A DNA stretch of 64,000 nucleotides from Desulfobacterales bacterium (GCA_028277765.1 JANQFQ010000051.1:115849-179848); one strand, 5' to 3'; counted from the first letter of the stretch, positions 20,630 through 36,252 are shown. Notes: generated by a model not told the origin, from the sequence alone. A program made the numbers and translations.

Positions 20630-20642
20630 GATCCACCGCCTT

Positions 20643-20931: not shown

Positions 20932-20960
20932 ATTTTCATTTCACTTAATCCTATCAATTT

Positions 20961-21115: not shown

Positions 21116-21148
21116 ACATGTTAAACATCCTTTCCTCTATTTGTTTTC

Positions 21149-21224: not shown

Positions 21225-21231
21225 ACAAAAT

Positions 21232-21306
21232 TGGTAGCGATACCTGGAATCGAACCAGGGTTGCTCGATTATCGGTCGAGTGTTCTGCCTGCTGAACTAT
21301 ATCGCC
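21232..21306 (-). tRNA. tRNA-Ile (GAT), unusual C33
   Basis: Loop ccGAUaa, acceptor GGCGAUA/UAUCGCU, CCA encoded. Confidence 0.65.
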
Positions 21307-21319
21307 CCGATTTATATTC

Positions 21320-21398
21320 TGGCACCCCCGGGAAGATTCGAACTCCCGCAAACCCGGCTTCGAAGGCCGGCGCTCTGGATCCGCTGAGCTACGGGGGC
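21320..21398 (-). tRNA. tRNA-Arg (TCG)
   Basis: Loop cuUCGaa, acceptor GCCCCCG/CGGGGGU, CCA encoded. Confidence 0.6.
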
Positions 21399-21419
21399 AT
21401 ATGTCATCAAAACTTTCTT

Positions 21420-21493
21420 TAATTTCTTTGCCCTCCGTTGCTAAAGCTATGGAGGGCACCATCCTTCTCTGTCGCGCTGCTCCGAGCGAAGGA
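21420..21493. repeat. TASR repeat copy d (5' part missing)
   Basis: ..gccctccgttgctaaagctatggagggcaccatccttctctgtcgcgctgctccgagcgaaggatgg. Confidence 0.6.
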
Positions 21494-21569
21494 TGGTGGA
21501 CCCGGAAGGCATCGAACCTCCATAATACCGGTTATGAGCCGGCTGCTCTGCCGATTAAGCTACGGGTCC
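21494..21569 (-). tRNA. tRNA-Met (CAT), elongator-type
   Basis: Loop cuCAUaa, acceptor GGACCCG/CGGGUCC fully paired, CCA encoded. Confidence 0.7.
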
Positions 21570-21580
21570 AATTGCTTCTC

Positions 21581-21690
21581 ACGCCATATGGCCAGCCATC
21601 CGTAGCTCGTTGCCATTGAGCCCTTAGCCCTCCGCCGTTAAAGCTATGGAGGGCACCATCCTTCTCCGTCGTATTGCTCCGAGCGAAGGA
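21581..21690. repeat. TASR repeat copy e
   Basis: atggccagccatccgtagctcgttgccattgagcccttagccctccgccgttaaagctatggagggcaccatccttctccgtcgtattgctccgagcgaaggatgg. Confidence 0.65.
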
Positions 21691-21773
21691 TGGTGAGAGG
21701 GGGATTCGAACCCCCAAGGCTGTTACGCCCCACAGTTTAGCAGTCTGCTGCCATACCGTTCGGCCATCTCACC
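21691..21773 (-). tRNA. tRNA-Ser (GCT), class II, CCA not encoded
   Basis: Acceptor GGUGAGA/UCUCACC, loop cuGCUaa, long variable arm, T-arm GGGGG-TTCGAAT-CCCCC. Confidence 0.65.
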
Positions 21774-21821
21774 ATGTTTTCAATTTCGGTCTATGTATTA
21801 CCGTTTGCATTACCTCCTTTT

Positions 21822-21926
21822 TTATGGCCAGCCATCCGTAGCTCGGTGCATTTGATCCTTTTGCCCTCCGTCGCTAAAGCTATGGACGGCGCCATCCTTC
21901 TTCGTCGACTTACTCCGAGCGAAGGA
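21822..21926. repeat. TASR repeat copy f
   Basis: ttatggccagccatccgtagctcggtgc...gccctccgtcgctaaagctatggacggcgccatccttcttcgtcgacttactccgagcgaaggatgg. Confidence 0.65.
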
Positions 21927-22019
21927 TGGCGGAGGGACAGAGACTCGAACTCTGACGCGCCTTTTCAGGCGTTACTGGTTTTCAAGACCAGGCCCCGCCC
22001 CGCTGGGGTCAACCCCTCC
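21927..22019 (-). tRNA. tRNA-Ser (TGA), class II, 93 nt with irregular D-arm
   Basis: Anticodon arm CUGGU-cuUGAaa-ACCAG and T-arm CAGAG-TTCGAGT-CUCUG closely match enterobacterial tRNA-Ser(UGA). Long variable hairpin. TGA anticodon, not TCA, so not tRNA-Sec. Confidence 0.65.
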
Positions 22020-22230
22020 GAATGTCTATCCCGAATTTCGGGCGCAATTCACCTGTGAAAGTTTTTAAACATTTTTGTAAAAACTTTCTGTTTCGAACAG
22101 TACTATTGGCGTCTGACCCTGAATAAAAGCCCGGATTTTTCTGTAGCATTCAAGCTGTTTAAAAATCCGGTGATCGGTCAATTAACGGGATTTTCCGTTA
22201 TTTAGCGCATTCTATTTTCCTGTTCATATA

Positions 22231-22310
22231 ATCTTCTTCAAAAAAAAACCCTTTCAGTATGCCTTGGGCAACCGAAAGGGTTTATAAAAAGCATACTGAT
22301 CGTAGTAATC
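22231..22310. ncRNA. Candidate structured RNA motif, copy 1 (pseudoknot-capable: CCCTTTC..AGTATGC..GAAAGGG..GCATACT plus CTGA..TCAG hairpin)
   Basis: Interleaved complementarity, conserved in a second copy at 22551-22640 with a compensatory T>C / A>G change in the second helix. No ORF. Confidence 0.4.
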
Positions 22311-22550
22311 AGGTCATATGTTCCTCCGTATCTATAATTGCACTGGAAAAATTTAAATTGGCACAGAGCAATGAGGACATACTCCTGCGTTTAGTATTAC
22401 TGCCCGGGTAATACCATAGGTCGCTCTTGGGTATATATTGTTTTAATTGCTGCATTTTTTCCTTTACCTTGTTTGTAATCGAAACTGTTTTTTCAATTAA
22501 ATCCCCATTGGGCAGGTTTGGAACCCGCCCCTACATTAATCTAAATATTT

Positions 22551-22640
22551 GTTCAACCAATTAAAAAGCCCCTTTCAGCATGCTGCCGAAAGGGGCTGTA
22601 AAATTCATGCTGAAATTTAGTATCAGTTCATGGGCCCCTC
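22551..22640. ncRNA. Candidate structured RNA motif, copy 2
   Basis: GCCCCTTTCAGCATGCTG..CCGAAAGGGGCTGTAAAATTCATGCTGAAATTTAGTATCAG aligns with copy 1 and keeps all three pairings. Confidence 0.4.
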
Positions 22641-22894
22641 CCGGCGTGATATTCTGACATATGCCAGATGAATACCGTTATAAAACGGATTCAAGAGGGT
22701 GGCTTCGGATAGGCTAAAATCCAAAAGCCTTTTAATTTGTTTTAAACATAGTAACCAAATCATTTTTAAATTCCTTAGTAATTTTTAACCTAATTATACA
22801 CTCTCTTTCGCGCGAAGTCAACAGCCGATTTTTATCATTCTTGATTTAAAATCTCCTGAGAAGCCTATAAAACCTGTATTTCTTTTACAAATAA

Positions 22895-23413
22895 TCATAA
22901 TGAAATTTTTAGGCCAAACTTTTCTTTTATTGTCAGCAACGCTTCTGCATTCCCTTTTGCATCATCTACAGGATAATGCGTATGTTTGGTTTTCCTTAGA
23001 TGTTTAAAATTCTTAAACATATCTTTTACAATACCTTTATATAAAGATCCTAAGTTCGTTGAACTAAATCCAAAGGGATTCTTTCCTGTAAAATGATGAA
23101 AATACCAGTTAATAAATTGCCAATCAAAACCATTGTTATCAGAGATAAACATTGGCTGGCTTTTAGAGTGCGTTTTAATCCAGCTAGCAAAATTCATCAT
23201 GACCTCTTTTGGTTCATCAAACGCCAGTACTTCCTCCCGGCTAAAGCCACTCACTGCCAGTGCTTCAGGAATCCAGTTTTCTGAAATCGGCCGCATTTGC
23301 CCGTAAAAAGTTTTTTCAAGGCCCGGTTTTACGATAACCGCCCCAAAGCTGATCATCGAATAATCGTCAGGTATGGGACCATCAGATTCTATATCTACCA
23401 TTATATAACTCAT
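22895..23413 (-). CDS. DEDDh-family 3'-5' exonuclease (DnaQ/RNase T-like), single domain
   Basis: Exo I MVDIESDG, Exo II FISDNNGFDW, Exo III HxxxxD as HTHYPVDDA; 172 aa. Confidence 0.75.
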   Translation of the reverse strand: MSYIMVDIESDGPIPDDYSMISFGAVIVKPGLEKTFYGQMRPISENWIPEALAVSGFSREEVLAFDEPKEVMMNFASWIKTHSKSQPMFISDNNGFDWQFINWYFHHFTGKNPFGFSSTNLGSLYKGIVKDMFKNFKHLRKTKHTHYPVDDAKGNAEALLTIKEKFGLKISL

Positions 23414-23427
23414 TTATAACCTCCAGA

Positions 23428-23511
23428 GGAGATGGTGGGCACAGCCCACCCTACAAATCAACCGATCTATAGCTTTAACAAAACGTAGGGCGGGCTGTGC
23501 CCACCATCTCC
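23428..23511. repeat. Long perfect palindrome R1, copy 1 (27-bp arms GGAGATGGTGGGCACAGCCCACCCTAC, ~30-nt loop)
   Basis: Intercistronic between the exonuclease and HEAT genes. Second copy at 28213-28293. Confidence 0.7.
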
Positions 23512-23512
23512 T

Positions 23513-25165
23513 TTAAACCTTTTCCAGGTTAAATCTTATGCTTTTCACAATCCAGTCATCAATATATTTCCCAAATTTCAACAATGCATTTTCTATTCGC
23601 TTTTTCTGGTCCTGAGTCGGTTTTGTAAAGCTTCTATTAAACCCTGGCGGCCATTTTTCCAAATACATTACGGCTCTTTCTTTTACTATTGCATCAGCTG
23701 ATACAGCACCTTCAATCAAATAAGAAACACTGTCCCATTTTGAAAGATGCCTGATCACAAAAAGAATATTAAGCTTACTGTACTGTTTGTCAGTATTCTT
23801 AAATGCTCTCCAAAGCTCATCTGCATCATATATGTATTTTAACGTACTTAAAATCATTGCTGCTTCCCGTGAAATACCCGGGGTGTCTTCAACGATTTTT
23901 CGGGAAAAAAGCTCCGCATATTCTTTGGGGCTTAATTTGCCCACAGCACGAATCGCGGCTTTTCTAATTTTCGCAAGTCGATGTGTAACAGCACCAACAA
24001 TTAAATCCGCATCATCACTTTTGCCTGTTTCACCTAAACCGCAAATAGCCCCCTGCAGTTTTTCTTTTTTTTCCTGTTTAATGAATTTGCGATAAATTTC
24101 AGCAAAATCTATTTCTTTCTTTTTGGCCAGATAAAATCTGGCAAACTCCCTGATCGATTTATGAGAATCGAGCAGGGAGTCATACAGTTTATCTTCTGCC
24201 TGATCAGGAAACCTTTCAATTATGACCGATAATGCCTCTCTGCGCACAGGCATAAAGCTGTTTGAGAGCATTTTTTTAAGGCACTTTGAAATATAAATTT
24301 CATCATAAAGCGCTCTAATTTTTCGAGCACATTTTATCCTGATAACACAATCATGATCTGCCAGCCCAATGTCCAGGGCTTCATTTTCTATACCTGTATT
24401 AACATTAAGAACCAATTGAAAACAGCTCCTCCTTGCTTTCAGGTCGATTAAAAACAAGCCGTTTTTCAAAGCATCATATGAATGCTCACTGGTTAATAAA
24501 GCGGTTATTTTTTCAACCGTCTCTTTATGATCATGTCGCCTGCAGTCTAAAAGACTGTTGATAATAGCCATGTTTGACACAAAATGTTCTATATAATCCT
24601 CGTCAATTCGGCTCTTAATGCTCCTTAAAGCTATTTTATGAATTTCCCTCACCCAGTCATTTAACCTGATGAGAATAAACGGCAATTCCTTTCCAGATTT
24701 TATTTTTCTAAGTTTCTTTAGTGCTGATTCACGTATATATCCATTACTGTGAAATGTTGTTAATGCAAGAACGGCAAAAGATTCATCGTTTTTCCCTTTA
24801 AAATGCCCCACATCTGCAGGGACCAAATTCCATTGCCCATAACTGCTCATCGTGTAATACGGTGATCTTTCACGCACTTGCAAATCAAGCCAACCCAGCT
24901 CAGACACTGGAATCATTTTTAAAAGTGTTTCAAGGACACTTGATGCAGCTGTCGCAACATCCAGATGTTTTGAATATGCAAAAGGCAAAATATCCGGGAT
25001 TACCGCCGGTTCCATGCGAGAGCCGATTTGGATGATATGGTCGGCAATCCTGCTTGAATCTTCAAAAAGTTTATTAAGCTGTCCCCCAGAATCATATAAT
25101 TCATTTATCAAGCTCCTGGTCACTTCAGAAACTTTGCGTGAAAATGTATGGGTACTCTGTTTCAT
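23513..25165 (-). CDS. HEAT/armadillo-repeat protein
   Basis: Repeated amphipathic helix pairs (..VRREALSVIIE.., ..AKIRKAAIRAVGKL..) over 550 aa. All-alpha by composition. Confidence 0.55.
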   Translation of the reverse strand: MKQSTHTFSRKVSEVTRSLINELYDSGGQLNKLFEDSSRIADHIIQIGSRMEPAVIPDILPFAYSKHLDVATAASSVLETLLKMIPVSELGWLDLQVRERSPYYTMSSYGQWNLVPADVGHFKGKNDESFAVLALTTFHSNGYIRESALKKLRKIKSGKELPFILIRLNDWVREIHKIALRSIKSRIDEDYIEHFVSNMAIINSLLDCRRHDHKETVEKITALLTSEHSYDALKNGLFLIDLKARRSCFQLVLNVNTGIENEALDIGLADHDCVIRIKCARKIRALYDEIYISKCLKKMLSNSFMPVRREALSVIIERFPDQAEDKLYDSLLDSHKSIREFARFYLAKKKEIDFAEIYRKFIKQEKKEKLQGAICGLGETGKSDDADLIVGAVTHRLAKIRKAAIRAVGKLSPKEYAELFSRKIVEDTPGISREAAMILSTLKYIYDADELWRAFKNTDKQYSKLNILFVIRHLSKWDSVSYLIEGAVSADAIVKERAVMYLEKWPPGFNRSFTKPTQDQKKRIENALLKFGKYIDDWIVKSIRFNLEKV

Positions 25166-25179
25166 TTTTTTAATTTCGC

Positions 25180-25250
25180 ATAAGTAGGTTAGGTTGAGCC
25201 GGTTTGCCCATGTTGGGTTAAAAACCGAAACCCAACCTACAAAAATTTAG
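25180..25250. repeat. R2 hairpin element, copy 1 (GTAGGTTG..GTTGGGTT-loop-AACCCAACCTAC)
   Basis: Second copy at 28362-28428; both intercistronic in the minus-strand operon. Confidence 0.55.
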
Positions 25251-25282
25251 CGTTCAATCCTTTGCAATCCCATAGACCACAG

Positions 25283-27145
25283 TTAACAATGCTTAATCAA
25301 ATCAATAATCGTGGTTTTATCAAGCATCTCTGGTGACAAGTCAATGTGATCACCGTCAGGTTTTTCAGCAACCACGGTTGCCCCTGCTATACTCAACATT
25401 TCTCTAAAATCTAGAGAATTCACCATACTGCCAACCAAATATTTTCTTGCATACTTTGATTGCTCGTTCTTTGCAGATGTAATGGAATTACCAATGCTGA
25501 CGTTTGCAAAGTACACCCGGTTCTCTCCATCAATATTTACGATCAATCCTAAGATGTTCTGCTTTTTAGTAATATTTATATTAGCACTCGCAATAAGATT
25601 GTTCACATCGATCATATAATTTTTTTTAAACTTATTTGGTTTTTCATGTGCAGCCATAATCTTGCACTCGACTTCATCACCTTTTTGGAAATTATAGTAA
25701 TTCACCATTAATATCCTTGCTTCCTGGTATCCCTTTTTGATGTAAAAAAGCTCAGATGCTCCTCGCGGTGCAGGCGCGTCCGTAATATCCCCGGAGAACA
25801 GAACACTTCGGTCATCTGACCGATAAGCCTCATCCCATCCTATCTTGCCGGATTCACCAATAACAGATAAGTCCAAATCTACCTGCTTATTGGTATTTGT
25901 CCAATGAATACCCACAATCAAATCTTCCGGCACTGAGATATAACTGCCTGTTGGGAGATTTCCGGTAAACTGCTTTTCCGTTGCTGGTAAAGCATAATAA
26001 ACGTTTGATGGAATATAAAACGTCTTTTGATTAACATTCTTCTGGATATCACCGACTATTGAAGTAACAACTATATCCAGCGCTTCCCGGGTCGTTTCAT
26101 TAAGGCATTCATGCCACTCAAATTCTGTTGCCCAGCCGCGGCCGTTTCGAATTTTGTAAACAATTGATCCTTCAGGTTGAAGACGATGCTTGAGGGCATA
26201 TGCCAGGCGAATTTTCCGAAAGATACTTGCTTTTTCAATCCTTTCTCCTAATTCATCCAAATTTAATGTTCCGTATTTTATTTGAGACGTTATGCTGTTC
26301 AAATAATCTTCCGGTAATGGAACGTGTAATTTGTCTGCTTTTTTCCGTAATTGATTAAAAAATGTCTTATTTTGCGAAATAGACTTCATGGCTAAAAATA
26401 ATGGTTTAAACCGAAAGAAAATAGAAGCCAGATCGTCTGGCGCATCTTTAATCAACATATCCAGGAATTTTCCATTTGCTTCCTTTATCTTCTCGATCAA
26501 ATAATCACTTTTTATAATTAATGATTCGTCTGTCAGCTTGCTAATCAAATGACGCAAAAACTCAACCGGATCAGAAGGCACAAGGCCATAAAGGTCATAA
26601 AGCAATGCCTTCAGCTCTCGATTGCCTATCTCATGGGCAAAATCACTGTCATAGTTATTGGCTTTTACAATGGTCATAATATCGTCCAATGTTTCTTGCG
26701 CAAGAGCGATTCCTGACCCTAAGTTTATAATTCTGTCAAGGATCTCCTGTGCATCCATCGCCTTAATAATAATTAACGGGACGCTGTCTTTAATAACAGG
26801 CAGTTCCAAAACCTCACTTGGAATATAAACCGCATCTTCCCGATAAATACCAAGCTCCTTGTATCCATACGTGGTTATGTAATGAATGATTTGCTGAATC
26901 ACTAAAGATTCCATTGAAGCATTCTGGACGACTTCCCAGGACTTATGAAAGGCAGCATTTGCTTTTTCACCGGAAATACCTACAACACTTTCAATAACAT
27001 CCAGCAAATCATTATTCGGCCATATGGCTTCATCAAGCAGATAACCGTTTTTAATTGTCCGCTCAAGAACAGACTGAGGTATATTTTTTTTGTTTTTGTT
27101 CTTAACTTGAATAGCATTAAACAATCTCAATGTTGCAGTTTTCAT
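25283..27145 (-). CDS. Large hypothetical protein (620 aa; N-terminal alpha-helical ~350 aa, C-terminal beta-rich domain)
   Basis: Long ORF with AAGGAGA 9 nt upstream of the ATG. No motif I can name; no MIDAS/vWA motif and no TROVE hallmark seen by eye. Confidence 0.6.
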   Translation of the reverse strand: MKTATLRLFNAIQVKNKNKKNIPQSVLERTIKNGYLLDEAIWPNNDLLDVIESVVGISGEKANAAFHKSWEVVQNASMESLVIQQIIHYITTYGYKELGIYREDAVYIPSEVLELPVIKDSVPLIIIKAMDAQEILDRIINLGSGIALAQETLDDIMTIVKANNYDSDFAHEIGNRELKALLYDLYGLVPSDPVEFLRHLISKLTDESLIIKSDYLIEKIKEANGKFLDMLIKDAPDDLASIFFRFKPLFLAMKSISQNKTFFNQLRKKADKLHVPLPEDYLNSITSQIKYGTLNLDELGERIEKASIFRKIRLAYALKHRLQPEGSIVYKIRNGRGWATEFEWHECLNETTREALDIVVTSIVGDIQKNVNQKTFYIPSNVYYALPATEKQFTGNLPTGSYISVPEDLIVGIHWTNTNKQVDLDLSVIGESGKIGWDEAYRSDDRSVLFSGDITDAPAPRGASELFYIKKGYQEARILMVNYYNFQKGDEVECKIMAAHEKPNKFKKNYMIDVNNLIASANINITKKQNILGLIVNIDGENRVYFANVSIGNSITSAKNEQSKYARKYLVGSMVNSLDFREMLSIAGATVVAEKPDGDHIDLSPEMLDKTTIIDLIKHC

Positions 27146-27163
27146 CGTAATCTCCTTTTAAAT

Positions 27164-27217
27164 GGGGCGAGAGGTAATTTAACTTATCGAGTTTTTTTTA
27201 AGGAACCTCTTGTGCCC
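27164..27217 (-). ncRNA. Hairpin module C (GGGC-ACA-AGAGG-U .. A-CCUCU-C-GCCC with A-rich loop)
   Basis: Same architecture as modules at 27345 and 28306, with compensatory base changes (GGGAG/CUCCU versus AGAGG/CCUCU). Confidence 0.55.
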
Positions 27218-27227
27218 TTCAATATGT

Positions 27228-27340
27228 CGGGGAAGGCAGGAATCGAACCTGCGACCGCCGGGTCCAAGATTTCAGGAACCCCCTGTGCCATAAAGCGGAG
27301 AGTAAAAAATCCCGGTGCTCTACCGCTGAGCTACTTCCCC
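27228..27340 (-). ncRNA. tRNA-like RNA (Y-RNA / YrlA-like tRNA mimic): intact acceptor, D-arm and T-arm, anticodon loop replaced by a 48-nt insertion
   Basis: GGGGAAG-UA-GCUC-AGCGGUAGA-GCAC-C-CCGGG-[48 nt incl. GGCACAGGGGGUUCC]-CCCGG-CGGUC-GCAGG-UUCGAUU-CCUGC-CUUCCCC. No CCA encoded. Sits in the rtcB operon flanked by hairpin modules. Confidence 0.6.
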
Positions 27341-27344
27341 ATAT

Positions 27345-27390
27345 GGGCGAGGAGTATTTTTCAAGGGTTTTTTAAGGAACTCCCTGTGCC
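27345..27390 (-). ncRNA. Hairpin module A (GGGC-ACA-GGGAG-U .. A-CUCCU-C-GCCC)
   Basis: Immediately 5' of the tRNA-like element in RNA sense; near-identical copy at 28306-28352. Confidence 0.55.
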
Positions 27391-27424
27391 CAAATGTTTC
27401 ATCTTTTTACAAATTAATATATTA

Positions 27425-27802
27425 TTAATATTTATTTGTTTTTAAAAATTTTTCTGCCTTTTTGACAAACAAATTACATCTTTTGGTTTTTTTCGCCACA
27501 TTAATAAATTTAGTGTATTTCTCTTCTGCTTTATTAAACCGCCCTGCTGTTTCATGGGATAAAGCTTCCCAAAAAATAGCCTCGTAAAGCATGGGAGATA
27601 ATTTCCATGCTTTTCGACTTGCGAAAATTGCCCTATCAATATCCCCTTCATTAAACCGGTTAAAATATTGAATCGTAGCATCAGCCACAGCAAGCAAAAC
27701 AAGCGGATCATCCTGATCCTTTTTATACTTTTCTAAAATTTCATCCATTTGCGCTTTTATCACTTCTCTGTTTTCGTCTACAGGATACACACCGAATTGC
27801 AC
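27425..27802 (-). CDS. Hypothetical protein (125 aa)
   Basis: ORF only; weak. Confidence 0.3.
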
Positions 27803-28184
27803 TGGAATGAAAATTAAATTTCAAGGTTTCATACCAGTATTTCTGCTCTTTGGCAGAAAAAACAAATAATTGGTTGCACTGAACACATTCCCTTTCAATA
27901 TCAACATAAAAATATTTTGGTGTATGGCACATATGGCAGAACATCTGCTCTCGAATATTGCCAGCCACCGCATTTTTAGGAAGTTTCGGTTTATAATCCG
28001 GATCATAACCCCATGTTTTATTTTTTTTGCCATTGAAACCAATGGTTGTTTTTTCAATCATTGGAATCTCACCAAATAATGGATGAGAAACAAATCGTCT
28101 ATTGTCAGCCAAAGATTTCTTATACTTTCTTTTCTTTAACTTCTTCTTTTCTTTCTTTGAATATGCTGATCGTCGAACACGCAT
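27741..28184 (-). CDS. Basic zinc-ribbon protein (CHMCH..CVQC..CVSC), 147 aa
   Basis: Lys/Arg-rich N-terminus, three Cys pairs; ORF only. Confidence 0.4.
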
Positions 28185-28212
28185 TTTATTCTAATCCTTA
28201 ACCGTTCAAAGG

Positions 28213-28293
28213 ATATGGTGGGCACAGCCCACCCTACAAATCAATCGATCTGTAGCTTTGATAAACCGTAGGGTGGGCTGTGCCCACCATCTC
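28213..28293. repeat. Long perfect palindrome R1, copy 2
   Basis: ATGGTGGGCACAGCCCACCCTAC ... GTAGGGTGGGCTGTGCCCACCAT. Confidence 0.7.
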
Positions 28294-28305
28294 ACTTCCC
28301 AATAT

Positions 28306-28352
28306 GGGCGAGGAGTAATTTTCAAGGTTTTTTAAAGGAACTCCCTGTGCCC
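28306..28352 (-). ncRNA. Hairpin module A' (third copy)
   Basis: gggcgaggagtaattttcaaggttttttaaaggaactccctgtgccc on the + strand, about 125 bp upstream (RNA sense) of the rtcB start region. Confidence 0.55.
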
Positions 28353-28361
28353 AATTATTCA

Positions 28362-28428
28362 GCTTTAAGTAGGTTGCCTGCTTGCCCATGTTGGGTTGAA
28401 AACCGTAACCCAACCTACAAATTAGCGT
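28362..28428. repeat. R2 hairpin element, copy 2
   Basis: taggttgcctgcttgcccatgttgggttgaaaaccgtaacccaacctacaa. Confidence 0.55.
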
Positions 28429-28477
28429 TTGTAAAACAAGATGGGATAAAGGCGAAACCCAACACTTTTGGATTATA

Positions 28478-29683
28478 TCAACCTTTTACCACCCCTAACG
28501 GTCTCAGTTTAACAAGCGGCTTAATCAGATCCAGTTCTGCTTCAATGACCGCGTCAATATCTTTATACGCCTGTGGTGCTTCGCTGAGATCGACCATCCC
28601 TTTTGTTTTACCTCTTTTTACTTTGCTCCACCGGTCATACACGATCCCTTCCATGGCCTTGTCGCATTCTTCAGGCGTTAATGCCCGTGTTGCCTGCATC
28701 CTTCCCATGACACGGCCTGCGCCGTGAGAACAGGACATAAAGGATTCAATGTTTCCGAGCCCTTTCACAATATATGACGATGTCCCCATGGAACCTGGAA
28801 TAATCCCGGTTTCATCCTGTTTGGCTGATGTAGCGCCTTTTCTGTGGACCCAGACATTTTTGCCAAAATGATTTTCCAGAGCAGCATAATTATGGTGTAT
28901 ATTCACCTGGTTTCCAAATTCAGCATCCTTATAAACTGATGTAAAAGCGTCTATAAATCTGTCCATAATTCGCTGCCTGTTCTCTCTTGCATATGCAAGG
29001 GCGAAATTCATATCTTTGATATAATCCTGGCCCTCCTGTGTGTTTACCGGTAAAAACGCTAGGTCCTTGTTCGGGATATTCGAATGGAACTTCCGGTTTA
29101 ACTCAAGGGCACGGTCATTATAAAACCTTGCAATCATATTGCCCAGGTGTCTTGACCCGGAATGGATCATCAGCCACACATGGTTATCATCACCTGCCTG
29201 GATTTCAATAAAATGATTGCCGCCACCCAGGGTTCCCAGATTTCTGCAGGCAAGATCCCTTACATGGGCAGAAAACCATTTTCTGTCACTATATGAATCA
29301 ATATCGTCTTCAAACCCTTCCCATGTCTGTTCTTTTTTATGTGCCTTGCCTTCGCCGCATGGAACCGTTTTCTTAATCATGTTGACAACTTCCCTGAGCT
29401 GTTCTCTGGTGGTATTTTCAACTTCGATACTTGTCCTCACAGCCCCCATCCCACAGCCGATATCCACACCAACAGCATTTGGAATCACCGTATTTGTGCA
29501 GGCAATCACACCGCCAATCGGCATCCCATACCCCTGATGACAGTCCGGCATCAGCGCCACATGGCGAAACACAGCCGGGTGCTGTGCTAAATCCGCAGCC
29601 TGATCCATTGCCCCATCTTCAATATCTTTACACCATGATTTGACCGGTACTCTAAAATTATCTTCCTGTTTTATCCATTCCAT
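28478..29683 (-). CDS. rtcB: RNA-splicing ligase RtcB (3'-phosphate/5'-OH RNA ligase)
   Basis: GTLGGGNHFIEIQ, HSGSRHLG and other RtcB blocks; 401 aa. Confidence 0.9.
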   Translation of the reverse strand: MEWIKQEDNFRVPVKSWCKDIEDGAMDQAADLAQHPAVFRHVALMPDCHQGYGMPIGGVIACTNTVIPNAVGVDIGCGMGAVRTSIEVENTTREQLREVVNMIKKTVPCGEGKAHKKEQTWEGFEDDIDSYSDRKWFSAHVRDLACRNLGTLGGGNHFIEIQAGDDNHVWLMIHSGSRHLGNMIARFYNDRALELNRKFHSNIPNKDLAFLPVNTQEGQDYIKDMNFALAYARENRQRIMDRFIDAFTSVYKDAEFGNQVNIHHNYAALENHFGKNVWVHRKGATSAKQDETGIIPGSMGTSSYIVKGLGNIESFMSCSHGAGRVMGRMQATRALTPEECDKAMEGIVYDRWSKVKRGKTKGMVDLSEAPQAYKDIDAVIEAELDLIKPLVKLRPLGVVKG

Positions 29684-29698
29684 AATAACACCTCTTTT

Positions 29699-30127
29699 TC
29701 ACTGCCATTGTTTTAACGCGAAATATGGTCCTAATCCAATGCTCTGCTCATGGGTAAAGGCCATAGTCCATTCCATATCTTCAGGAAAAACATAATAATC
29801 ACCAAAAGCTGATAGATCATGAAGCGTTTTAGAACAGCATTTGTATCCCAGGTTATCGTCTTTCTCAGAGAGTACATAATATTCTTTTGATGATACATTC
29901 TTATATAATTCAATAGCTCTTGCCCCAAGCTTGTGAATGGCGAAGTCGAAACTGAATGTATGCCAGTTATAATCGCCATAAATCCACTTTCCTTTTTTTT
30001 CCTTGATGATCTTTGAAAATGTTTCTCGCCATTTTTGCTGTAATTTCCAAGTTTCTTTTTTTGTAAGCTGGAAATATTGTATTGAATGTTCTTCAAAAAA
30101 TGTTTCTAGCATTTTCTTTAATTTCAA
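29699..30127 (-). CDS. Hypothetical protein (142 aa) inserted between rtcA and rtcB
   Basis: ORF with upstream spacing consistent with the operon. No recognisable domain. Confidence 0.45.
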   Translation of the reverse strand: MKLKKMLETFFEEHSIQYFQLTKKETWKLQQKWRETFSKIIKEKKGKWIYGDYNWHTFSFDFAIHKLGARAIELYKNVSSKEYYVLSEKDDNLGYKCCSKTLHDLSAFGDYYVFPEDMEWTMAFTHEQSIGLGPYFALKQWQ

Positions 30128-30338
30128 ATAATTGAATTTTTCACCTCTTAATATCTACAACCTGTTTTATCCTGTCAATTTTGTCTTTTTGCCATATTAA
30201 AAAAGACAGAATTTCATAAAGCACTTTCTTTAAAACCCGATCACGACCACGACCACCGCTCCGCTGATCACGACCACGAATTATAATGGCAGAGCGAAGC
30301 GATACATCAACTTTAGGCACTTATAACTTTAGTGCACT

Positions 30339-31358
30339 TTAGGCACTTTTTATGTCAATCTCCCACTCATTCTGCCCATATTCTTGCATATCAATGTCAA
30401 CATCCAGAAACTCTTTAATAATATCAATATTCGTCCTTGTATGTTTTGTCGGTGAAAGCGTTCTGAATTTACCTCCACCGGCCATGGCCATTGGAATCAG
30501 TAACTGATCCGCAAGATATCTGCCCACTGGCACATCATATGCCAGATATTCCCGTACAGATTTTGCTGTCCGGTTTGCCACCTTTTCCGCTGAAACGCCT
30601 CTTTCACCAAATCCCGTGAAAACCTCTGTAATATATTCACTTTCAATCTCTATTGTCAGAATATTCCCCGGGCCCTGAGAGTTTTCAACTTCAACCGTTC
30701 TTAATTCTTCCCTGTTCCATTCCAGCTTTTCCTTGATCACTTTAATCTCCCTGTGCGCGATCTTCACCGGCAGGTTTGCCACAACCGCGCTGGCGATTTT
30801 CCTGACAGTTTTTCCGCGATCCAGAAGATCAATACTATTAAGCTTTGTAGGATTAATCGTCACCTTAAATCTGCCTCCGCCTGCTGGATAAAAGCCCGGC
30901 TTTTCAAGCACAGCATCAACCCTTGGCCCCATCCGCTTAATCACCGGCAGAAAAGCTTTTTCAAGAAAGTCAAAAGGCGGAGCATATGGATTATGCGTTC
31001 CCCCTTCCAGAACAATCTCTGAAGGACCATCTGCAACTATTAGCGCCGGTAAAATAGTTTGAAAAACCAGGGTGCAGCTTCCGGCAGAGCCGATGGCAAA
31101 ATGATAATTGCCCGGTTTGATGGTTTCAGGCTCAAATGTAAACGCCTGTGAACCGATCCGGTTTCCCTGGATAGCAGCCTTGCCGATCTCTGCCGCGGCA
31201 TTTACCGCAGTAAGATGCTGACGCATCAGTCCCGGCTTTTTTCGCCCAGCCCGGATATTGCTTATTGTAAACGGCTTTCCTGTTACCAACGAAAGCGCAA
31301 GGGACGTTCTTAGAATCTGACCGCCGCCTTCACCATATGAACCGTCAATTAAAATCAT
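30339..31358 (-). CDS. rtcA: RNA 3'-terminal phosphate cyclase RtcA
   Basis: MILIDGSYGEGGGQILRTSLALSLVTGKPF..RQHLTAV N-terminal signature; 339 aa. Confidence 0.9.
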   Translation of the reverse strand: MILIDGSYGEGGGQILRTSLALSLVTGKPFTISNIRAGRKKPGLMRQHLTAVNAAAEIGKAAIQGNRIGSQAFTFEPETIKPGNYHFAIGSAGSCTLVFQTILPALIVADGPSEIVLEGGTHNPYAPPFDFLEKAFLPVIKRMGPRVDAVLEKPGFYPAGGGRFKVTINPTKLNSIDLLDRGKTVRKIASAVVANLPVKIAHREIKVIKEKLEWNREELRTVEVENSQGPGNILTIEIESEYITEVFTGFGERGVSAEKVANRTAKSVREYLAYDVPVGRYLADQLLIPMAMAGGGKFRTLSPTKHTRTNIDIIKEFLDVDIDMQEYGQNEWEIDIKSA

Positions 31359-31447
31359 TAGTATTTCCTTTTTAAAATTTGTTCAGATACAGAAACGATT
31401 ATGATGGGATGCTCCACCTTTTAGCAGAACATCCCATCAGTTAAAGG

Positions 31448-32554
31448 TTATAATAAATTAACAACCCTGTCAGCAAGTCCCTTTTCACCCAGCACAACAT
31501 TGAGCTTTGAATTTCCTGCAACTTTCTCAAGAACATCCAGCTCTCGCAGGCGCATAAGTGTTGGGTTGTTGTCCAGGAGTTTAGCTGTATTGGCCTGGCT
31601 ACGCATAGCAGCTGTCTCTTCTCTACGCGTAATCAGGTTGGCATCTGCTGCTTTCTGGGCCTCGATGACTTTATTCATGAGGTCCTTCATATCTCCTGGC
31701 AGAATCACGTCCCTGATACCAAGTGCCAGCACATCAATACCGAATTCAGCTACTCGCTCCTTTATCGTATCTTCCAGATCTTTTGCCACTCTCTCTTTGT
31801 CGCTCAGGAGTGTATCCAGATCAAATGTTCCAATAACAGCCCGTAACGCCAGCTGTGCTTCACGGTATACAGCGTTTTTGCTGTCATCCACAACAGACAC
31901 GGACTTAAGCGCGTCCACAACCTTGTAAGTAATCACGGCATTCATTCGCAGTGTCACCTTGTCAGAGGTCATGATCTCCTGGCCGGATACATCCATTACC
32001 GTCTCACGCATATCAACATGATAAAATTTTACTTTTCCCATATTTCTCCAGAACATGTACTGGCCTGGTCCGAAAGTATCTACATGTACACCGTCTTTAA
32101 AGTAAACACCTGCAAAACCCTGCTCAACATTAGAAATGTTCAGTGCATGTTCTACGCCACTGGATTTCGCGATGATGTTAAGGTCCTTGTGATTAAATCG
32201 CACATCTCTCGCATCCACAACTTCAACTTTTACATTGCGAAATTTTGTCCAAAGTGCGTATAAACCTGGATCCAGAACCATTTCAAACCGTCCGTCAATC
32301 CAGACCAGTCCCCGCTGGTGATCCTTAAGGTCAAGGACTTCCGCGTGACCTTTCAAAGCGCCTGACTTTACAATCATGTCAAGGTCTTCATGCATAAACC
32401 AGGCATCCCGCTGGGAAACAACGGCTACCTTGACATTGCATAAAGGATCGACGAACCAGTGACGCCCTTTTCCTAAAAGGCCTTTGAATTCACGATCCCG
32501 AAAGTATAATCCTTTTTCATAAGAACGAATTTTTTTAGTTTTGATTAAGAACAT
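31448..32554 (-). CDS. SPFH/band-7 (stomatin/flotillin-like) domain protein
   Basis: PHB-domain region plus C-terminal coiled-coil (..EAQKAADANLITRREETAAMRSQANTAKLL..); 368 aa. Confidence 0.75.
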   Translation of the reverse strand: MFLIKTKKIRSYEKGLYFRDREFKGLLGKGRHWFVDPLCNVKVAVVSQRDAWFMHEDLDMIVKSGALKGHAEVLDLKDHQRGLVWIDGRFEMVLDPGLYALWTKFRNVKVEVVDARDVRFNHKDLNIIAKSSGVEHALNISNVEQGFAGVYFKDGVHVDTFGPGQYMFWRNMGKVKFYHVDMRETVMDVSGQEIMTSDKVTLRMNAVITYKVVDALKSVSVVDDSKNAVYREAQLALRAVIGTFDLDTLLSDKERVAKDLEDTIKERVAEFGIDVLALGIRDVILPGDMKDLMNKVIEAQKAADANLITRREETAAMRSQANTAKLLDNNPTLMRLRELDVLEKVAGNSKLNVVLGEKGLADRVVNLL

Positions 32555-32837
32555 TTTCCTCTCCTTTCCCCTGAATTACTTTTCGGGACACTGTTATTAA
32601 TACGCCGGGTGAAATAAACCGTTGGGAAGTAAGCTGAAACCCTTCCACACTTAACATGCGGAGCACTATTTGAGCTTCCTGGTCCTTCAGGCTGTCTGGC
32701 ATTTTATCTAAACAATTGCAAAACCCTTCTAGCCTGGGTTTAGTAAACAGAATTGATATCATGCCTCTAACCTGAAATCCCATGTGAAGCGGTATCCACG
32801 CGCTGCATGGCATGTTGCCAAGTGCTGTCTTTTCCAA
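32535..32837 (-). CDS. Doubtful small ORF upstream of the SPFH gene (TTG start; could be NfeD-like or non-coding)
   Basis: ORF-track start is TTG; first ATG is at codon 9. No SD. Position is analogous to NfeD partners of SPFH genes. Confidence 0.2.
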   Translation of the reverse strand: MEKTALGNMPCSAWIPLHMGFQVRGMISILFTKPRLEGFCNCLDKMPDSLKDQEAQIVLRMLSVEGFQLTSQRFISPGVLITVSRKVIQGKGEENVLNQN

Positions 32838-33011
32838 ACATCAGCTTTTGCCGCCGCCTGATGACGTCCATCATACTGACTGGATATGTTTTCAGGCCAT
32901 CCGGTCCCGGCTGCGTGTCCGGATAAAACCGGCTGGATAACCGCTCACTCCCCTCGGGCCTTTTTAGGAGATCGTTTTCAGCGATCTAAGAGGGTTTTCA
33001 TCCCTTTGGCT

Positions 33012-33085
33012 TGGAGCAGGAATCGAACCTGCAACGCCCGTGTTATAAGCACGGTGCTCTACCAATTGAGCTATCCTCTTCTGAT
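33012..33085 (-). ncRNA. tRNA-like leader RNA: canonical D-arm, anticodon arm (loop cuUAUaa) and T-arm, but the 3' acceptor strand is interrupted by a ~22-nt insertion
   Basis: AAGAGGA-UA-GCUC-AAUUGGUAGA-GCAC-CGUGC-uuauaac-ACGGG-CGUU-GCAGG-UUCGAUU-CCUGC-UCC[aagccaaagggaugaaaaccc]UCUU. Lies between the sigma54 promoter and the first operon ORF. Confidence 0.55.
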
Positions 33086-33201
33086 ATCTGACCATCATTG
33101 ATCCCATGTTCGGTACACACAGCATTGACCGCATTGCTGAATGAAGTGCGCCGCTGGCCCGGCGGATATCAGTTTGTTAAAGAACAATTGCCGTGTAATA
33201 G

Positions 33202-33216
33202 AGCAATGGATGTGCC
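33202..33216 (-). promoter_or_regulatory. Sigma54 (RpoN) -24/-12 promoter, TGGCAC-N5-TTGC, reading into the rtc operon
   Basis: + strand gcaatggatgtgcca; reverse complement is TGGCACATCCATTGC, a perfect GG-N10-GC consensus. Divergent from rtcR, as in E. coli rtcBA. Confidence 0.75.
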
Positions 33217-33383
33217 ATCCATGACAAAAAGTGTGCGATTGCTATTTAATGGTTTGATTTTATATAAAATATTTTTTTTGACATGCGGATTTGTCTCTTG
33301 ACCTGGAAAAAGATTTTGGCTATAATTTTATAAAATATTATAAATTTATAGAAAATATTATATCAAAATGGTATAGGTTTCAT

Positions 33384-33419
33384 TTGAATAACAAACGACA
33401 CTATTCAACTCAGCTTTAT
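33384..33419 (+). promoter_or_regulatory. Palindrome TTGAATAAC-N7-ACTATTCAA plus CTCAGCTTTAT abutting the rtcR ATG (copy 2)
   Basis: Same 35-bp sequence as 18921-18955 (one arm mismatch). Confidence 0.5.
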
Positions 33420-35021
33420 ATGAAAAAAAAAGTTGTCATAGGGCTTCTTGGCCCGACTTTAGACATAGGAAAACGCTCAAAACGATGGGAACGATGGCGT
33501 CCCACGGTTGCCTTGTGCCAGCATGAGGATTTACTGGTAAGCCGTTTTGATTTGTTGTATCAAAAAAAGTTCAAGTCTCTCCAGGACCGTGTGGTCAAGG
33601 ATATTAAGCACATTTCACCAGAAACAGAAGTTATCTCACATGAAATTGACCTCCATGATCCTTGGGATTTTGAGGAGGTTTACGCAGCCCTACATGACTT
33701 CACAAAAGCCTATACATTTAATCAGGACAATGAAGACTACCTGGTACACATAACTACCGGGACACACGTTGCTCAGATATGCCTCTACTTGCTTACTGAA
33801 TCAAACTATCTTCCTGCCAGACTGGTCCAGACAAGTCCTTCCTCAGGAAAAAACAAGGACAATGATGTTAGCGGCGAATACCGGATCATCGATCTTGACC
33901 TGTCCAAGTACGACAGGATCGCCATGCGGTTCAGGCAGGAAATGGATGATGATATTACCTTTTTAAAATCCGGCATCGAGACACGCAACAAAGCGTTTAA
34001 TGTGTTGATTGAACGGATTGAACAAGTTGCCATGAACTCGGTTGATCCGGTTTTGCTCACAGGGCCCACCGGTGCCGGGAAATCAAATCTTGCGAGACGT
34101 ATTTATGAGCTTAAAAAAACACGGCGCCAGCTTAAAGGTGCTTTCATAGAGGTGAATTGCGCCACTCTCCGTGGCGATGCTGCCATGTCAGCCTTGTTTG
34201 GACATAAAAAAGGCGCGTTTACCGGGGCAACCCAGGACAGAAATGGACTTTTGCGGGCAGCAGACAAGGGTATGCTTTTCCTGGATGAAGTTGGCGAACT
34301 CGGTCTTGATGAGCAATCCATGCTTCTTCGCGCTATTGAAGAAAAGCGGTTTCTTCCAGTAGGTTCGGACAATGAGACGGAATCAGACTTTCAGCTCATT
34401 TGCGGTACAAACCGCGATCTTCATATTGACGTGACGAACGGCCGTTTCAGGGAAGACCTTCTTTCTCGCATAAATCTATGGACTTTTCATATGCCGGGCC
34501 TTACGCAAAGACCGGAAGATATTGAACCGAACCTGAGATACGAACTCGATCGGTTTGCGGAGAGGAACAATACACATGTTACCTTTAATAAAGAGGCTAG
34601 AAAAAAATTCCTTACTTTTGCGACATCGCCTGTTGCATTATGGTCAGCCAATTTCAGGGATCTGAACGGTGCCATAACCCGCATGGCAACCCTAGCGCCG
34701 GGAGGCCGGATCACTAAAGAGGTTGTGCAGGAAGAGATATCTAGGTTGAAAGTCTTGTGGCATACAGCTGAAACAGATAGCCGTCATACACTTTTAAATG
34801 AGGTGATCGGTTCTGAAAAAGTAAAGGAGCTTGATCTCTTTGAGAAAAATCAGCTACTTGAGGTTTTGCTAGTATGTAGGGAATCAAAAAACATATCAGA
34901 TGCCGGCCGCAAACTATTTGCCGTGTCACGAGAGAACAAAAAGAAGACCAATGATTCAGACCGCCTTCGGAAATACCTGTCGCGTTATAATATAAGTTGG
35001 GAAGATCTTACGAAACCGTAA
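33420..35021 (+). CDS. rtcR: Sigma54-dependent transcriptional regulator RtcR (CARF-like N-domain + AAA+ + HTH)
   Basis: 533 aa, colinear with E. coli RtcR along the whole length: WRPT..CQ, HITTGTHVAQIC, LLTGPTGAGKS, GAFTGA, FREDL..RINLWTF, DADRLRKYL. Start set at MKKKVVIGLLG rather than the longer ORF. Confidence 0.92.
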   Translation: MKKKVVIGLLGPTLDIGKRSKRWERWRPTVALCQHEDLLVSRFDLLYQKKFKSLQDRVVKDIKHISPETEVISHEIDLHDPWDFEEVYAALHDFTKAYTFNQDNEDYLVHITTGTHVAQICLYLLTESNYLPARLVQTSPSSGKNKDNDVSGEYRIIDLDLSKYDRIAMRFRQEMDDDITFLKSGIETRNKAFNVLIERIEQVAMNSVDPVLLTGPTGAGKSNLARRIYELKKTRRQLKGAFIEVNCATLRGDAAMSALFGHKKGAFTGATQDRNGLLRAADKGMLFLDEVGELGLDEQSMLLRAIEEKRFLPVGSDNETESDFQLICGTNRDLHIDVTNGRFREDLLSRINLWTFHMPGLTQRPEDIEPNLRYELDRFAERNNTHVTFNKEARKKFLTFATSPVALWSANFRDLNGAITRMATLAPGGRITKEVVQEEISRLKVLWHTAETDSRHTLLNEVIGSEKVKELDLFEKNQLLEVLLVCRESKNISDAGRKLFAVSRENKKKTNDSDRLRKYLSRYNISWEDLTKP

Positions 35022-35447
35022 CTATTTTACCTTAGAAAAAATTCCAATATAAGGCCCTTTTTTTATGCGGAAAACAATCAGGGCGAGCTTGAGCGTTTCA
35101 CACACAGGCAGCATGACCTTCCAGTAAATATCAGGCCTATTGAAAAGGGAGATGGTAATGATGACAAAGGGAACATACCAGAAAATCTCCAGCCGATTAC
35201 CAATCCTGAATATATTGCAGAACATGAAAAAAGATACCCCAAGATATAATGGTATCAGATAGATGCTGGTCCCTGGAAAAAAATAACGGAAACCCAAACT
35301 GACAAAGATCAGCAAAACGATTAACAAAAGATCGATCAAGTTAAACCGGAAACCAGGTGATCGTTGTATCTTAAATGTAAGCCACTTCATCCAGGAGGTT
35401 CCCTTCTTTGTTAAAGGTGAGGGTTGTTCTACAGAACTTGCCGCCAA
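35022..35447 (-). CDS. Small membrane protein (hypothetical)
   Basis: Two or three hydrophobic helices; overlaps the next gene, so the start is uncertain. Confidence 0.35.
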   Translation of the reverse strand: MAASSVEQPSPLTKKGTSWMKWLTFKIQRSPGFRFNLIDLLLIVLLIFVSLGFRYFFPGTSIYLIPLYLGVSFFMFCNIFRIGNRLEIFWYVPFVIITISLFNRPDIYWKVMLPVCETLKLALIVFRIKKGPYIGIFSKVK

Positions 35448-36252
35448 AATTTCTTACCGCAAGGTCCTGCGCGATAATCGTTGTCTCGTCCGATACCTCA
35501 ACAACATTTGTAATCATTAGGAATTTTGCAATGGAATGCATTTCATTAAAAACAACACTTTTTTCAGCCATTTTTAGGTGCCTTTCCAACGGCAGATCGA
35601 ACGTTTGCCTATCGCTTATCTTTTTATTCAACGCATTATACAGATATGTTTTTGCTGAATTATTGTTAACCTCAAGGATGTAAAACACAAAAGGATTAAG
35701 GCTGCTGGGGATAGCTTCCCGGCATTTCAGTTTATTGATTACATGAATATGGAGGATCTTTTTTATAAAAAAATAAAAAAAAAGCAGAATAAAATACACA
35801 AAACCCACGATTTTATATTGCCAAAAAAACAGAGCAGCACAGGCTGATCCGGTCATCAGCCATGCTGTAACATCTATAAAAAAGACCGCGTTAAGACTGT
35901 ATCGCTTTGATACCACCGGCCAGAACACGGCAATGCCGAATGTATTAAAAAGATCAAGAACCGAATGGAGCCAAAGCCCTCCCAGGGCAGCAAAGAAAAT
36001 AACCGGGCTGAAGTCAAAAAGGTAAAACAGAGGAAGGGAGACCAGAAAAGCTAACAAAGGAGAAAACAAAAAAGCATGCGTTGGACCCTGATGGTTTTTC
36101 AAATAAAACCGCTTGCCAAAAACCATCAGGAAAACATCAAGGTCTGGAAGAACGCTTGCGGCAAGAAAAGACGCGCCCGCGAGTTCATGACCGGAATAGG
36201 CGAGCACGCTGAACCCGATACCTCCTATAGCTGTATGGTGAACAATGTCCAT
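35371..36252 (-). CDS. Membrane-bound metal-dependent hydrolase (YdjM-like) with C-terminal extra domain
   Basis: HHTAIGG...PDLD...HQGPTHAF motif set typical of YdjM/DUF457 family. Confidence 0.55.
   Translation of the reverse strand: MDIVHHTAIGGIGFSVLAYSGHELAGASFLAASVLPDLDVFLMVFGKRFYLKNHQGPTHAFLFSPLLAFLVSLPLFYLFDFSPVIFFAALGGLWLHSVLDLFNTFGIAVFWPVVSKRYSLNAVFFIDVTAWLMTGSACAALFFWQYKIVGFVYFILLFFYFFIKKILHIHVINKLKCREAIPSSLNPFVFYILEVNNNSAKTYLYNALNKKISDRQTFDLPLERHLKMAEKSVVFNEMHSIAKFLMITNVVEVSDETTIIAQDLAVRNFGGKFCRTTLTFNKEGNLLDEVAYI

Follow-up and report, generated by a model that had tools for sequence, protein, structure and literature searches.

Burroughs and Aravind (2016), whose work we cite from Wang et al. 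(bioRxiv 10.1101/312249), predicted a system that brings together the RNA ligase RtcB, a Band-7 protein and a 'band-7-associated transfer RNA' (b7a-tRNA). The YrlA RNA of M. smegmatis has the open-acceptor form of a tRNA-like RNA; RNase P cleaves it and CCA is added (10.1101/312249). Translational stress induces the long tRNA arrays of Anabaena, which have HNH endonuclease and rtcB genes as neighbours, and the Anabaena gene all4315 is likewise reported to respond to stress and to be connected with tRNA arrays (PMC8421152). The TrcR regulon of Anabaena comprises rtcB and a slipin/SPFH gene in addition to a tRNA array and an HNH gene (PMC10272220). Here we analyse a stretch of 64,000 nucleotides (nt) from a Desulfobacterales bacterium (GCA_028277765.1, JANQFQ010000051.1:115849-179848), hereafter the window, in which an Rtc RNA-repair operon, a tRNA array and the gene of a 620-amino-acid (aa) protein, p620, lie together with several structured RNAs. 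The locus bears on how bacterial RNA-repair operons find their substrates and on what tRNA-like cofactor RNAs do. To our knowledge, Ro60-Y RNA is the only one of the tRNA-like-RNA repair systems to have been studied experimentally.

Our central observation is that a covarying hairpin RNA, often fused to a tRNA mimic, accompanies p620 in almost all cases and is specifically linked to it. This pair is apparently the new part of the locus and is widespread in bacteria, archaea and phages; no prior description of it was found in the literature searched, the coverage of which was incomplete. Moreover, comparison with related loci demonstrates the composite nature of the interval, in which a predicted core of known type is joined to a tRNA array. 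On balance we think it probable that the interval combines a conserved RtcR/σ54 operon joined to that array, two lineage-specific insertions and an autonomous, horizontally mobile p620-RNA module that would act as a ribonucleoprotein.

A covarying hairpin RNA precedes p620

The DNA directly 5′ of p620 is conserved across phyla (65 genomic loci) and encodes a hairpin of the form 5'-GGC-ANA-N5-UUCCU…UA-N5'-C-GCC-3', made up of P1, an ANA/C internal loop and P2. An earlier reading of the window from its sequence alone (the initial annotation) had marked 'hairpin modules' here. These resolve into three canonical copies of one motif, at 57-59 bits with our covariance model R1, and a fourth, circularly permuted copy that sits in a tRNA-like element (27228-27340). 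The gene and the canonical copies are as follows.

25283-27145, minus strand: p620, 620 aa, with an α-helical N-terminal part (~390 aa) and a C-terminal TerD-like β-sandwich; putative hairpin binder.
28302-28356, minus strand: hairpin copy 1 (R1 59.2 bits, E 4e-14), directly after rtcB.
27341-27395, minus strand: hairpin copy 2 (R1 56.9 bits).
27161-27221, minus strand: hairpin copy 3 (R1 58.2 bits), which ends 15 nt before the p620 start codon (27145).

In an alignment of 44 hairpin sequences 94% of cells are paired, and 10 of the 11 pairs have changes on both sides. The observed covariation was reached by none of 500 shuffles, whilst slid controls dropped to 44-57% pairing. Moreover, column pair 5/61, which was not used in the selection of sequences, is 100% paired and takes five pair types. 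Searches with R1 gave 3 matches in the window (64 kb), 67 in the 65 genomic p620 loci (1.03 Mb), 206 in 81 viral p620 loci (1.53 Mb) and 0 in 597 kb of control loci without p620. All 276 matches (~2.6 Mb) are on the p620 strand and beside the p620 gene. Arrays of the hairpin reach 8 copies, and hairpins lacking a tRNA-like part are the commonest form.

Other identities for the hairpin were tried and rejected. Read as a σ54 promoter (GGCA…TTCC against GGCAC-N5-TTGC), it has a spacer that deviates by one position and CC in place of the −12 GC; the motif is also present in archaea, cyanobacteria and phages, and its 3′ half covaries with its 5′ half. Cyanobacteria are without σ54 (PMC10272220). 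As a known RNA family it found no Rfam 15 match at E ≤ 1, and in positions 22000-36000 of the window the only Rfam matches at E ≤ 1 were to tRNA, in a database that may hold no bacterial YrlA model.

Fusions of the hairpin to tRNA-like folds

The circularly permuted copy forms part of a chimera with a tRNA-like RNA.

27228-27340, minus strand: second tRNA-like RNA of the window, a full cloverleaf with an open 7-bp acceptor stem (Rfam tRNA 60.3 bits).

Its anticodon loop carries a 44-nt insert, and this insert is the permuted hairpin motif. The open-acceptor chimera was found in the window and, beyond it, in 15 loci that together have at least 19 such elements. In a 20-sequence alignment of chimeras the acceptor, anticodon and motif helices all covary, and several of the elements have an encoded CCA. 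In a converse form the hairpin loop holds the T arm, a capped acceptor stem and the D arm (loci L037, L041, L058, L060, L064 and L065; Ktedonobacter, Fibrobacter). The order of elements in YrlA is that of this capped, permuted form (10.1101/312249). We also considered whether the insert could be a classical tRNA intron or a bulge-helix-bulge site and rejected both, given that the remnants have no conserved 7-nt anticodon loop and that the internal loop is 3 nt/1 nt. The initial annotation had placed one tRNA-like element here and another in the leader of the Rtc operon (33013-33076, described below), and both are borne out by the Rfam tRNA model, the latter at 52.3 bits; these two non-canonical elements were not called by ARAGORN.

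A serious alternative to a ribonucleoprotein is that the hairpins are purely a cis-regulatory leader of the p620 mRNA, that is, a 5′ untranslated region which p620 itself or another factor binds to control termination or translation, with no trans-acting particle. Between the last hairpin and the p620 start codon lies a median of 28 nt (interquartile range 20-54), there is no promoter space between hairpin and gene, and T-runs of at least 4 follow 40% of last hairpins versus 25% of the others. However, the arrays hold up to 8 divergent copies, copies are also found 3′ of p620 (L058, L064, L065, L117, L132 and L152), and one copy in the window lies ~1.1 kb upstream, across two other genes. Moreover, a simple operator would hardly account for copies fused to whole tRNA-like folds, which come in two permutations and in some cases encode a CCA. 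We therefore give the cis-acting leader an appreciable but minor chance of being the whole explanation.

The Rtc core operon and the tRNA array

The p620 module of the window lies downstream of an Rtc operon, the elements of which are listed from the activator gene onwards.

33420-35021, plus strand: rtcR, a σ54-dependent activator with an RtcR/CARF-type N-terminal domain (Pfam RtcR 1.6e-84, Sigma54_activat 1.2e-49).
33203-33217, minus strand: σ54 promoter TGGCAC-N5-TTGC, read straight off the sequence.
32555-33190 (~650 nt), minus strand: long structured leader, holding an acceptor-truncated, b7a-tRNA-like tRNA fold.
31448-32554, minus strand: SPFH/Band-7 protein (Pfam Band_7 2.9e-32).
30339-31358, minus strand: rtcA, RNA 3'-phosphate cyclase (Pfam RTC 5.2e-81, RTC_insert 8.5e-16).
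28478-29683, minus strand: rtcB, RNA ligase (Pfam RtcB 4.6e-113).

The Band-7 protein has 304 metagenome relatives, and 80 loci of close relatives were fetched for analysis of synteny. The order of a divergent rtcR followed by leader, band-7, rtcA and rtcB is constant in the closest Band-7 relatives (69-88% identical; ~20 loci), where the stop of rtcA abuts the start of rtcB. The rtcR of these relatives is 79-87% identical and keeps its divergent placement. All 14 RtcR-linked relatives with enough upstream sequence have TGGCAY-N5-TTGCT ~680 nt 5′ of band-7. In the window the promoter was placed one base away from the 33202-33216 of the initial annotation.

The first ~370 nt of the leader show 70-77% identity among relatives. 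Its tRNA-like fold is matched at model positions 5-66 only, and the acceptor stem is therefore truncated, with almost none of it present; the D, anticodon and T arms are kept in relatives, with compensatory changes in the anticodon stem. A 100-aa 'small ORF' (open reading frame) at 32535-32837, which the initial annotation had counted as a gene, is not preserved as an open frame in close relatives and was therefore rejected as a gene; most likely it belongs to the leader. Taken together, comparison across relatives identifies the core as a conserved Rtc RNA-repair operon with a divergent RtcR and a σ54 promoter, predicted to be RtcR/σ54-controlled. Measured against the description that Wang et al. 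quote, it is the already predicted Band-7/b7a-tRNA variant and thus of a known kind.

Beyond the distal genes lies a tRNA array, which had been missed in the initial annotation.

22060-22859, minus strand: spacer kept in relatives, with a near-consensus σ70-type promoter (22821-22793) and two short units.
17408-22019, minus strand: 27-gene tRNA array for all 20 amino acids (ARAGORN and Rfam), closely spaced and co-oriented.
20123-20629, minus strand: HNH endonuclease gene within the tRNA array (HNH_5 2.1e-15).

In close relatives the tRNA array directly follows rtcB, and by synteny the Rtc operon and the array make up a conserved island. The array has the features by which L-arrays were described (PMC8421152), namely more than 20 co-oriented tRNA genes with HNH and RNA-repair genes nearby. 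An unrelated gammaproteobacterial contig (L012) has RtcA, Band-7, 18 tRNAs and p620 together, and in L012 and L018 tRNA genes are found directly 5′ of Band-7.

Several further features were observed around the island. The two short units of the spacer end in strong terminators (22597-22567 and ~22240-22290) and could be ORFs of 46-48 aa or small RNAs. Directly after the tRNA array is a gene (16599-17021, minus strand) for a 140-aa RF-1-domain protein of the ArfB-like peptidyl-tRNA hydrolase/ribosome-rescue type, which is unmatched in those loci of relatives that reach past the array (e.g. L156). Upstream of the island, at 8150-12080, are a vWA-domain protein that is not TROVE, a histidine kinase and an OmpR-type response regulator.

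Insertions and their cargo

By blastn, homology with at least 7 close relatives stops at the rtcB stop (window 28480) and restarts at 22859 within ~25 nt, after which it runs through the kept spacer into the 27-gene array and its embedded HNH gene. Because the relatives pass from the rtcB stop to 22859 in so short a distance, everything from the first hairpin through to the exonuclease gene is an insertion. Its GC content is 0.38, versus 0.43-0.44 in the core.

29699-30127, minus strand: DUF4275 protein, 142 aa (Pfam DUF4275 4.1e-08), a second, local insertion between rtcA and rtcB.
22860-28479, minus strand: 5.6-kb insertion, absent in relatives, carrying all distal genes and RNAs.
~28205-28300, no strand assigned: long palindromic element, copy A, after the first hairpin; a nearly fully paired long stem (folding z-score -9).
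27741-28184, minus strand: zf147, a 147-aa treble-clef zinc-ribbon protein (Pfam zf_Tbcl 3.2e-13).
27425-27802, minus strand: TPR125, a 125-aa weakly TPR-like protein (Pfam ANAPC3 4.5e-4 and TPR_2 3.6e-3, both below cut-off).
23513-25165, minus strand: HEAT550, a 550-aa HEAT-repeat protein (Pfam HEAT_2 3e-10).
23425-23515, no strand assigned: long palindromic element, copy B, between HEAT550 and the exonuclease gene.
22895-23413, minus strand: exo172, a 172-aa DEDDh 3'-5' exo(ribo)nuclease, Rv2179c-like (Pfam RNase_T/Rv2179c-like).

Domain assignments thus recover all of the proteins that had initially been listed (RtcR, SPFH, RtcA, the 142-aa protein, RtcB, the zinc ribbon and the 125-aa, 620-aa, HEAT and DEDDh exonuclease proteins). 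None of DUF4275, the zinc ribbon, the TPR-like ORF, p620, HEAT550 or the exonuclease is present in any Band-7 relative examined. The start codon of TPR125 is uncertain because the ORF overlaps zf147, and zf147 never adjoins p620 or Rtc in the other loci examined.

HEAT550 is modelled as a confident all-α solenoid with no vWA domain and matches generic HEAT/ARM proteins only; its homologues (~100) are stand-alone genes in unrelated contexts. The same is true of exo172, which has more than 7,990 homologues, the named top matches being 77-80% identical across Planctomycetes, Verrucomicrobia and Bacteroidetes. This conservation is unusually high for a stand-alone accessory gene. exo172 also matches the PADLOC model PDLC00753 ('Effector Exonuclease') at 6.7e-40. 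Both proteins were considered as partners of p620 or Rtc and rejected, their neighbourhoods elsewhere being unrelated. The only other locus in which p620 and a HEAT protein are adjacent is L014 (9561-13520; Marinicella meishanensis), where 3 tandem tRNA-like/hairpin chimeras are followed by p620 and then by a HEAT550 homologue (29% identity). Judged from gene neighbourhoods, the HEAT, exonuclease, zinc-ribbon and TPR-like genes are co-inserted cargo and are not supported as partners. The two palindromic copies, which the initial annotation had likewise missed, both lie inside the insertion and share a near-perfect core of ~85 nt that is ~92% identical (counted on the alignment); the element is absent from every other fetched locus.

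These comparisons bear on the proposal of the initial annotation that a single RtcR-controlled end-healing or surveillance system extends from the σ54 promoter to the exonuclease, with tRNA mimics guiding trimming that is coupled to RtcB ligation. All genes are indeed on the same strand with spacers of at most 293 nt and no strong terminator in a simple scan, a hairpin copy comes directly after rtcB, and p620 adjoins RtcB or Band-7 in several unrelated lineages (L011, L012, L018, L032, L093 and L098). However, the distal block is missing from every close relative examined, in which rtcB leads straight to the tRNA array, and HEAT550, exo172, zf147 and TPR125 are never found with p620 or Rtc in the other loci examined, bar the HEAT homologue of L014. 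Moreover, the hairpin motif tracks p620 only. We consider such an integrated system unlikely. Control by RtcR and σ54 is supported for the Rtc operon with its tRNA-mimic leader and SPFH gene, and not for one system that takes in the distal genes, which are an inserted block. Gene linkage, the test that had been put forward for the distal genes as partners, goes against them, and Y-RNA-guided exonucleolytic trimming receives no comparative support. Similarly, the suggestion of an undescribed Rtc composition does not hold for the core, which is of the known Band-7 type as quoted by Wang et al. and carries an insertion; it was, however, through the hairpins and the second tRNA-like RNA that the apparently undescribed p620-RNA pair came to light.

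p620 in phages and other genomes

p620 is common in large phages, with 144 loci in IMG/VR, and is also present in the cultured cyanophages S-CRM01 and S-CBWM1. In S-CRM01, p620 (g174) is located centrally within the tRNA array of the phage and is flanked by hairpins on either side. Upstream of it, a minus-strand 'hypothetical protein', g173c, overlaps two hairpins (L152; NC_015569 132391-132537) and is probably a mis-annotation. At least 10 tRNAs lie within 10 kb of p620 in 13 of 80 viral loci, and the RNA-repair nucleotidyltransferase RlaP is found in 7 viral p620 loci. The other phage neighbours are replication and nucleotide-metabolism genes. A conserved protein partner of p620 was also sought by clustering the neighbours in 65 genomic and 81 viral loci, which gave only phage replication genes. 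The link of p620 to RNA repair is, on these neighbourhoods, a candidate enrichment.

Two cellular loci stand out. In a Lachnospiraceae metagenome-assembled genome (L046 9427-11860) the hairpin and p620 begin right after ssrA, the gene of transfer-messenger RNA, which could reflect either an island integrated at ssrA or a link to translation rescue. A Methanobacterium sp. contig (L043) has an archaeal p620 homologue with two upstream hairpins and 18 tRNA genes flanking both sides, and may be a provirus or a mobile element bearing a tRNA array in a methanogen.

Such a distribution could also suggest a conflict module of mobile elements, either a pair resembling type III toxin-antitoxin systems or RNAs that serve as decoys or sponges for tRNA-targeting nucleases. 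Tandem RNA units 5′ of a protein gene, a patchy and apparently horizontal spread with 60-77% identity across phyla, and abundance in phages within tRNA arrays would all be expected of one. Yet the repeat units are divergent and not near-identical, p620 has neither a PADLOC match nor a nuclease or toxin fold, and in phages it sits among genes of replication and nucleotide metabolism. This explanation is less likely than a cis-acting leader, and we hold it to be doubtful.

The p620 protein family

A word-indexed search found more than 1,700 relatives of p620, with 60-77% identity across cyanobacteria, Desulfobacterales, Beggiatoa-like bacteria and Chloroflexi. An exhaustive profile search gave 1,572 clusters at 50% identity, mostly of ~600-660 aa. 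Archaeal relatives in genome loci are ~31-43% identical, and no match was found among the plasmids of PLSDB. The protein belongs to no Pfam, NCBIfam or PHROG family and has no PADLOC match; its only NCBIfam match is local, to an SCO0854-family model at 29.5 bits against a cut-off of 600.

In the predicted structure the C-terminus of p620 has the TerD β-sandwich fold, and no vWA domain is present. As the initial annotation had supposed, there is no TROVE protein in the window: HMM searches of the window's proteins were negative, the 620-aa and HEAT proteins included, and the structure predictions that it had called for gave a TerD-like β-sandwich with an α-helical part for the former and an all-α solenoid for the latter, neither of them TROVE/Ro60. 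That p620 might nonetheless be an extremely divergent Ro60/TROVE relative, a far member of the Ro-Y RNA family with its vWA domain swapped for a TerD-like one, is very unlikely: α-helices make up the N-terminal part, the RNAs that go with p620 are YrlA-like in topology and D. radiodurans Rsr (2nvo) ranks fourth in Foldseek, but that match is not significant (E 0.04, probability 0.30, TM 0.10), none of 19 p620 family members has a TROVE Pfam match at E ≤ 1, a profile search of PDB sequences gave nothing, and the p620 hairpin appears unlike the Ro-binding helix.

A candidate tRNA-mimic ribonucleoprotein

We prefer the reading in which a conserved island and a mobile p620 module have come to lie together. 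The core operon, the tRNA array and its HNH gene would form an island with which the cell copes when its translation apparatus is damaged, a physiological role that we infer by analogy with the literature on E. coli/Salmonella Rtc and on the tRNA arrays of Anabaena. The module would consist of 1-8 hairpin copies encoded directly 5′ of p620 on the same strand, often fused to a tRNA-like domain. p620 would bind the hairpin to form a ribonucleoprotein. As in Ro60-YrlA, the tRNA-like domain may offer a handle to factors that recognise tRNA, and in stress or phage-host conflict the particle could have tRNA or other translation RNAs as its targets. The analogy with Ro60-YrlA suggests, by extension, each of these steps: the binding of the hairpin, the manner of working and the action on tRNA or translation RNAs.

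Several observations weigh against this reading. No RNA-binding or catalytic domain is recognisable in p620, and residues 57-113, the site of its best conserved motifs, are poorly modelled. About 90% of p620 loci are without an RNA-repair gene within 10 kb. The short distance from the last hairpin to the start codon fits a cis-regulatory leader equally well. Lastly, a simple scan of the window gave no strong terminator that would separate the inserted genes from rtcB, and because of this there could be read-through from the σ54 promoter and hence functional coupling at this locus.

More tentatively, p620 and its hairpin/tRNA-like RNAs might constitute a third, unrecognised class of tRNA-mimic ribonucleoprotein beside Ro60-Y RNA and Band-7-b7a-tRNA, spread by phages and mobile elements in bacteria and archaea, and maintaining, jointly with spare tRNA arrays and RtcB-type repair, a working tRNA pool in translational stress or under attack by tRNA nucleases. 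We put this forward as a possibility and not as the expected outcome. p620 would be a second tractable case, with ~1,500 clusters at 50% identity and a strongly covarying RNA that takes both YrlA-type topologies. The independent adoption of both topologies points to a general principle, in which a protein-binding helix is joined to a tRNA handle. Cultured phages (S-CRM01 with g174, and S-CBWM1) offer experimental entry points, and new Rfam and Pfam entries could be made for the hairpin motif and the p620 family.

Comparison with known systems

The part of the window from 28478 to 35021 resembles the Band-7/b7a-tRNA operons, as far as they are described in the quotation, in having a tRNA-like RNA directly 5′ of Band-7, beside RtcB/RtcA and with RtcR/σ54 control. 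It differs from that description in that little of the acceptor stem is present in the tRNA-like fold, which forms part of a conserved leader of ~650 nt.

The island likewise shares with the Anabaena L-array more than 20 tRNA genes, an HNH gene and a nearby rtcB; in Anabaena the array shares its regulation with rtcB and a slipin/SPFH gene. Unlike there, the array is here joined physically to an RtcR/σ54 Band-7-RtcA-RtcB operon and is not TrcR-controlled, and the host is not a cyanobacterium, the closest matches to p620 and its RNAs coming from Desulfobacterales. An RtcR/σ54 Band-7-RtcAB operon with a complete spare tRNA set therefore extends the link between array, RtcB and SPFH, which is regulatory in Anabaena and is here a single genomic island outside the cyanobacteria.

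For the p620 module, other comparisons are partial. Its C-terminus shares the β-sandwich fold of the TerD family (PDB 2qz7, 2kxt), but p620 has no Pfam TerD match or ter operon context and its N-terminal ~390 residues have no counterpart there. As in type III toxin-antitoxin systems (ToxIN), tandem RNA units stand directly 5′ of the protein gene, sometimes with a terminator-like element between; unlike in ToxIN, the units are divergent structured hairpins and not near-identical short repeats, and the 620-aa protein is without the small endoribonuclease fold.

The closest likeness is to Ro60-YrlA/YrlB (rsr-yrlBA-rtcBA). p620 likewise has cognate structured RNAs beside its gene and on the same strand; these RNAs likewise join a conserved protein-associated helix to a tRNA-like domain through the anticodon stem, and they share the capped permuted and open-acceptor forms (cf. 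YrlA of S. Typhimurium and M. smegmatis). The p620 module is likewise sometimes found next to RtcB, and in phages. It differs in its protein, which is not of the TROVE type and is without a vWA domain, apparently also in its hairpin motif, and in that hairpin-only RNAs are the commonest form, in arrays of up to 8.

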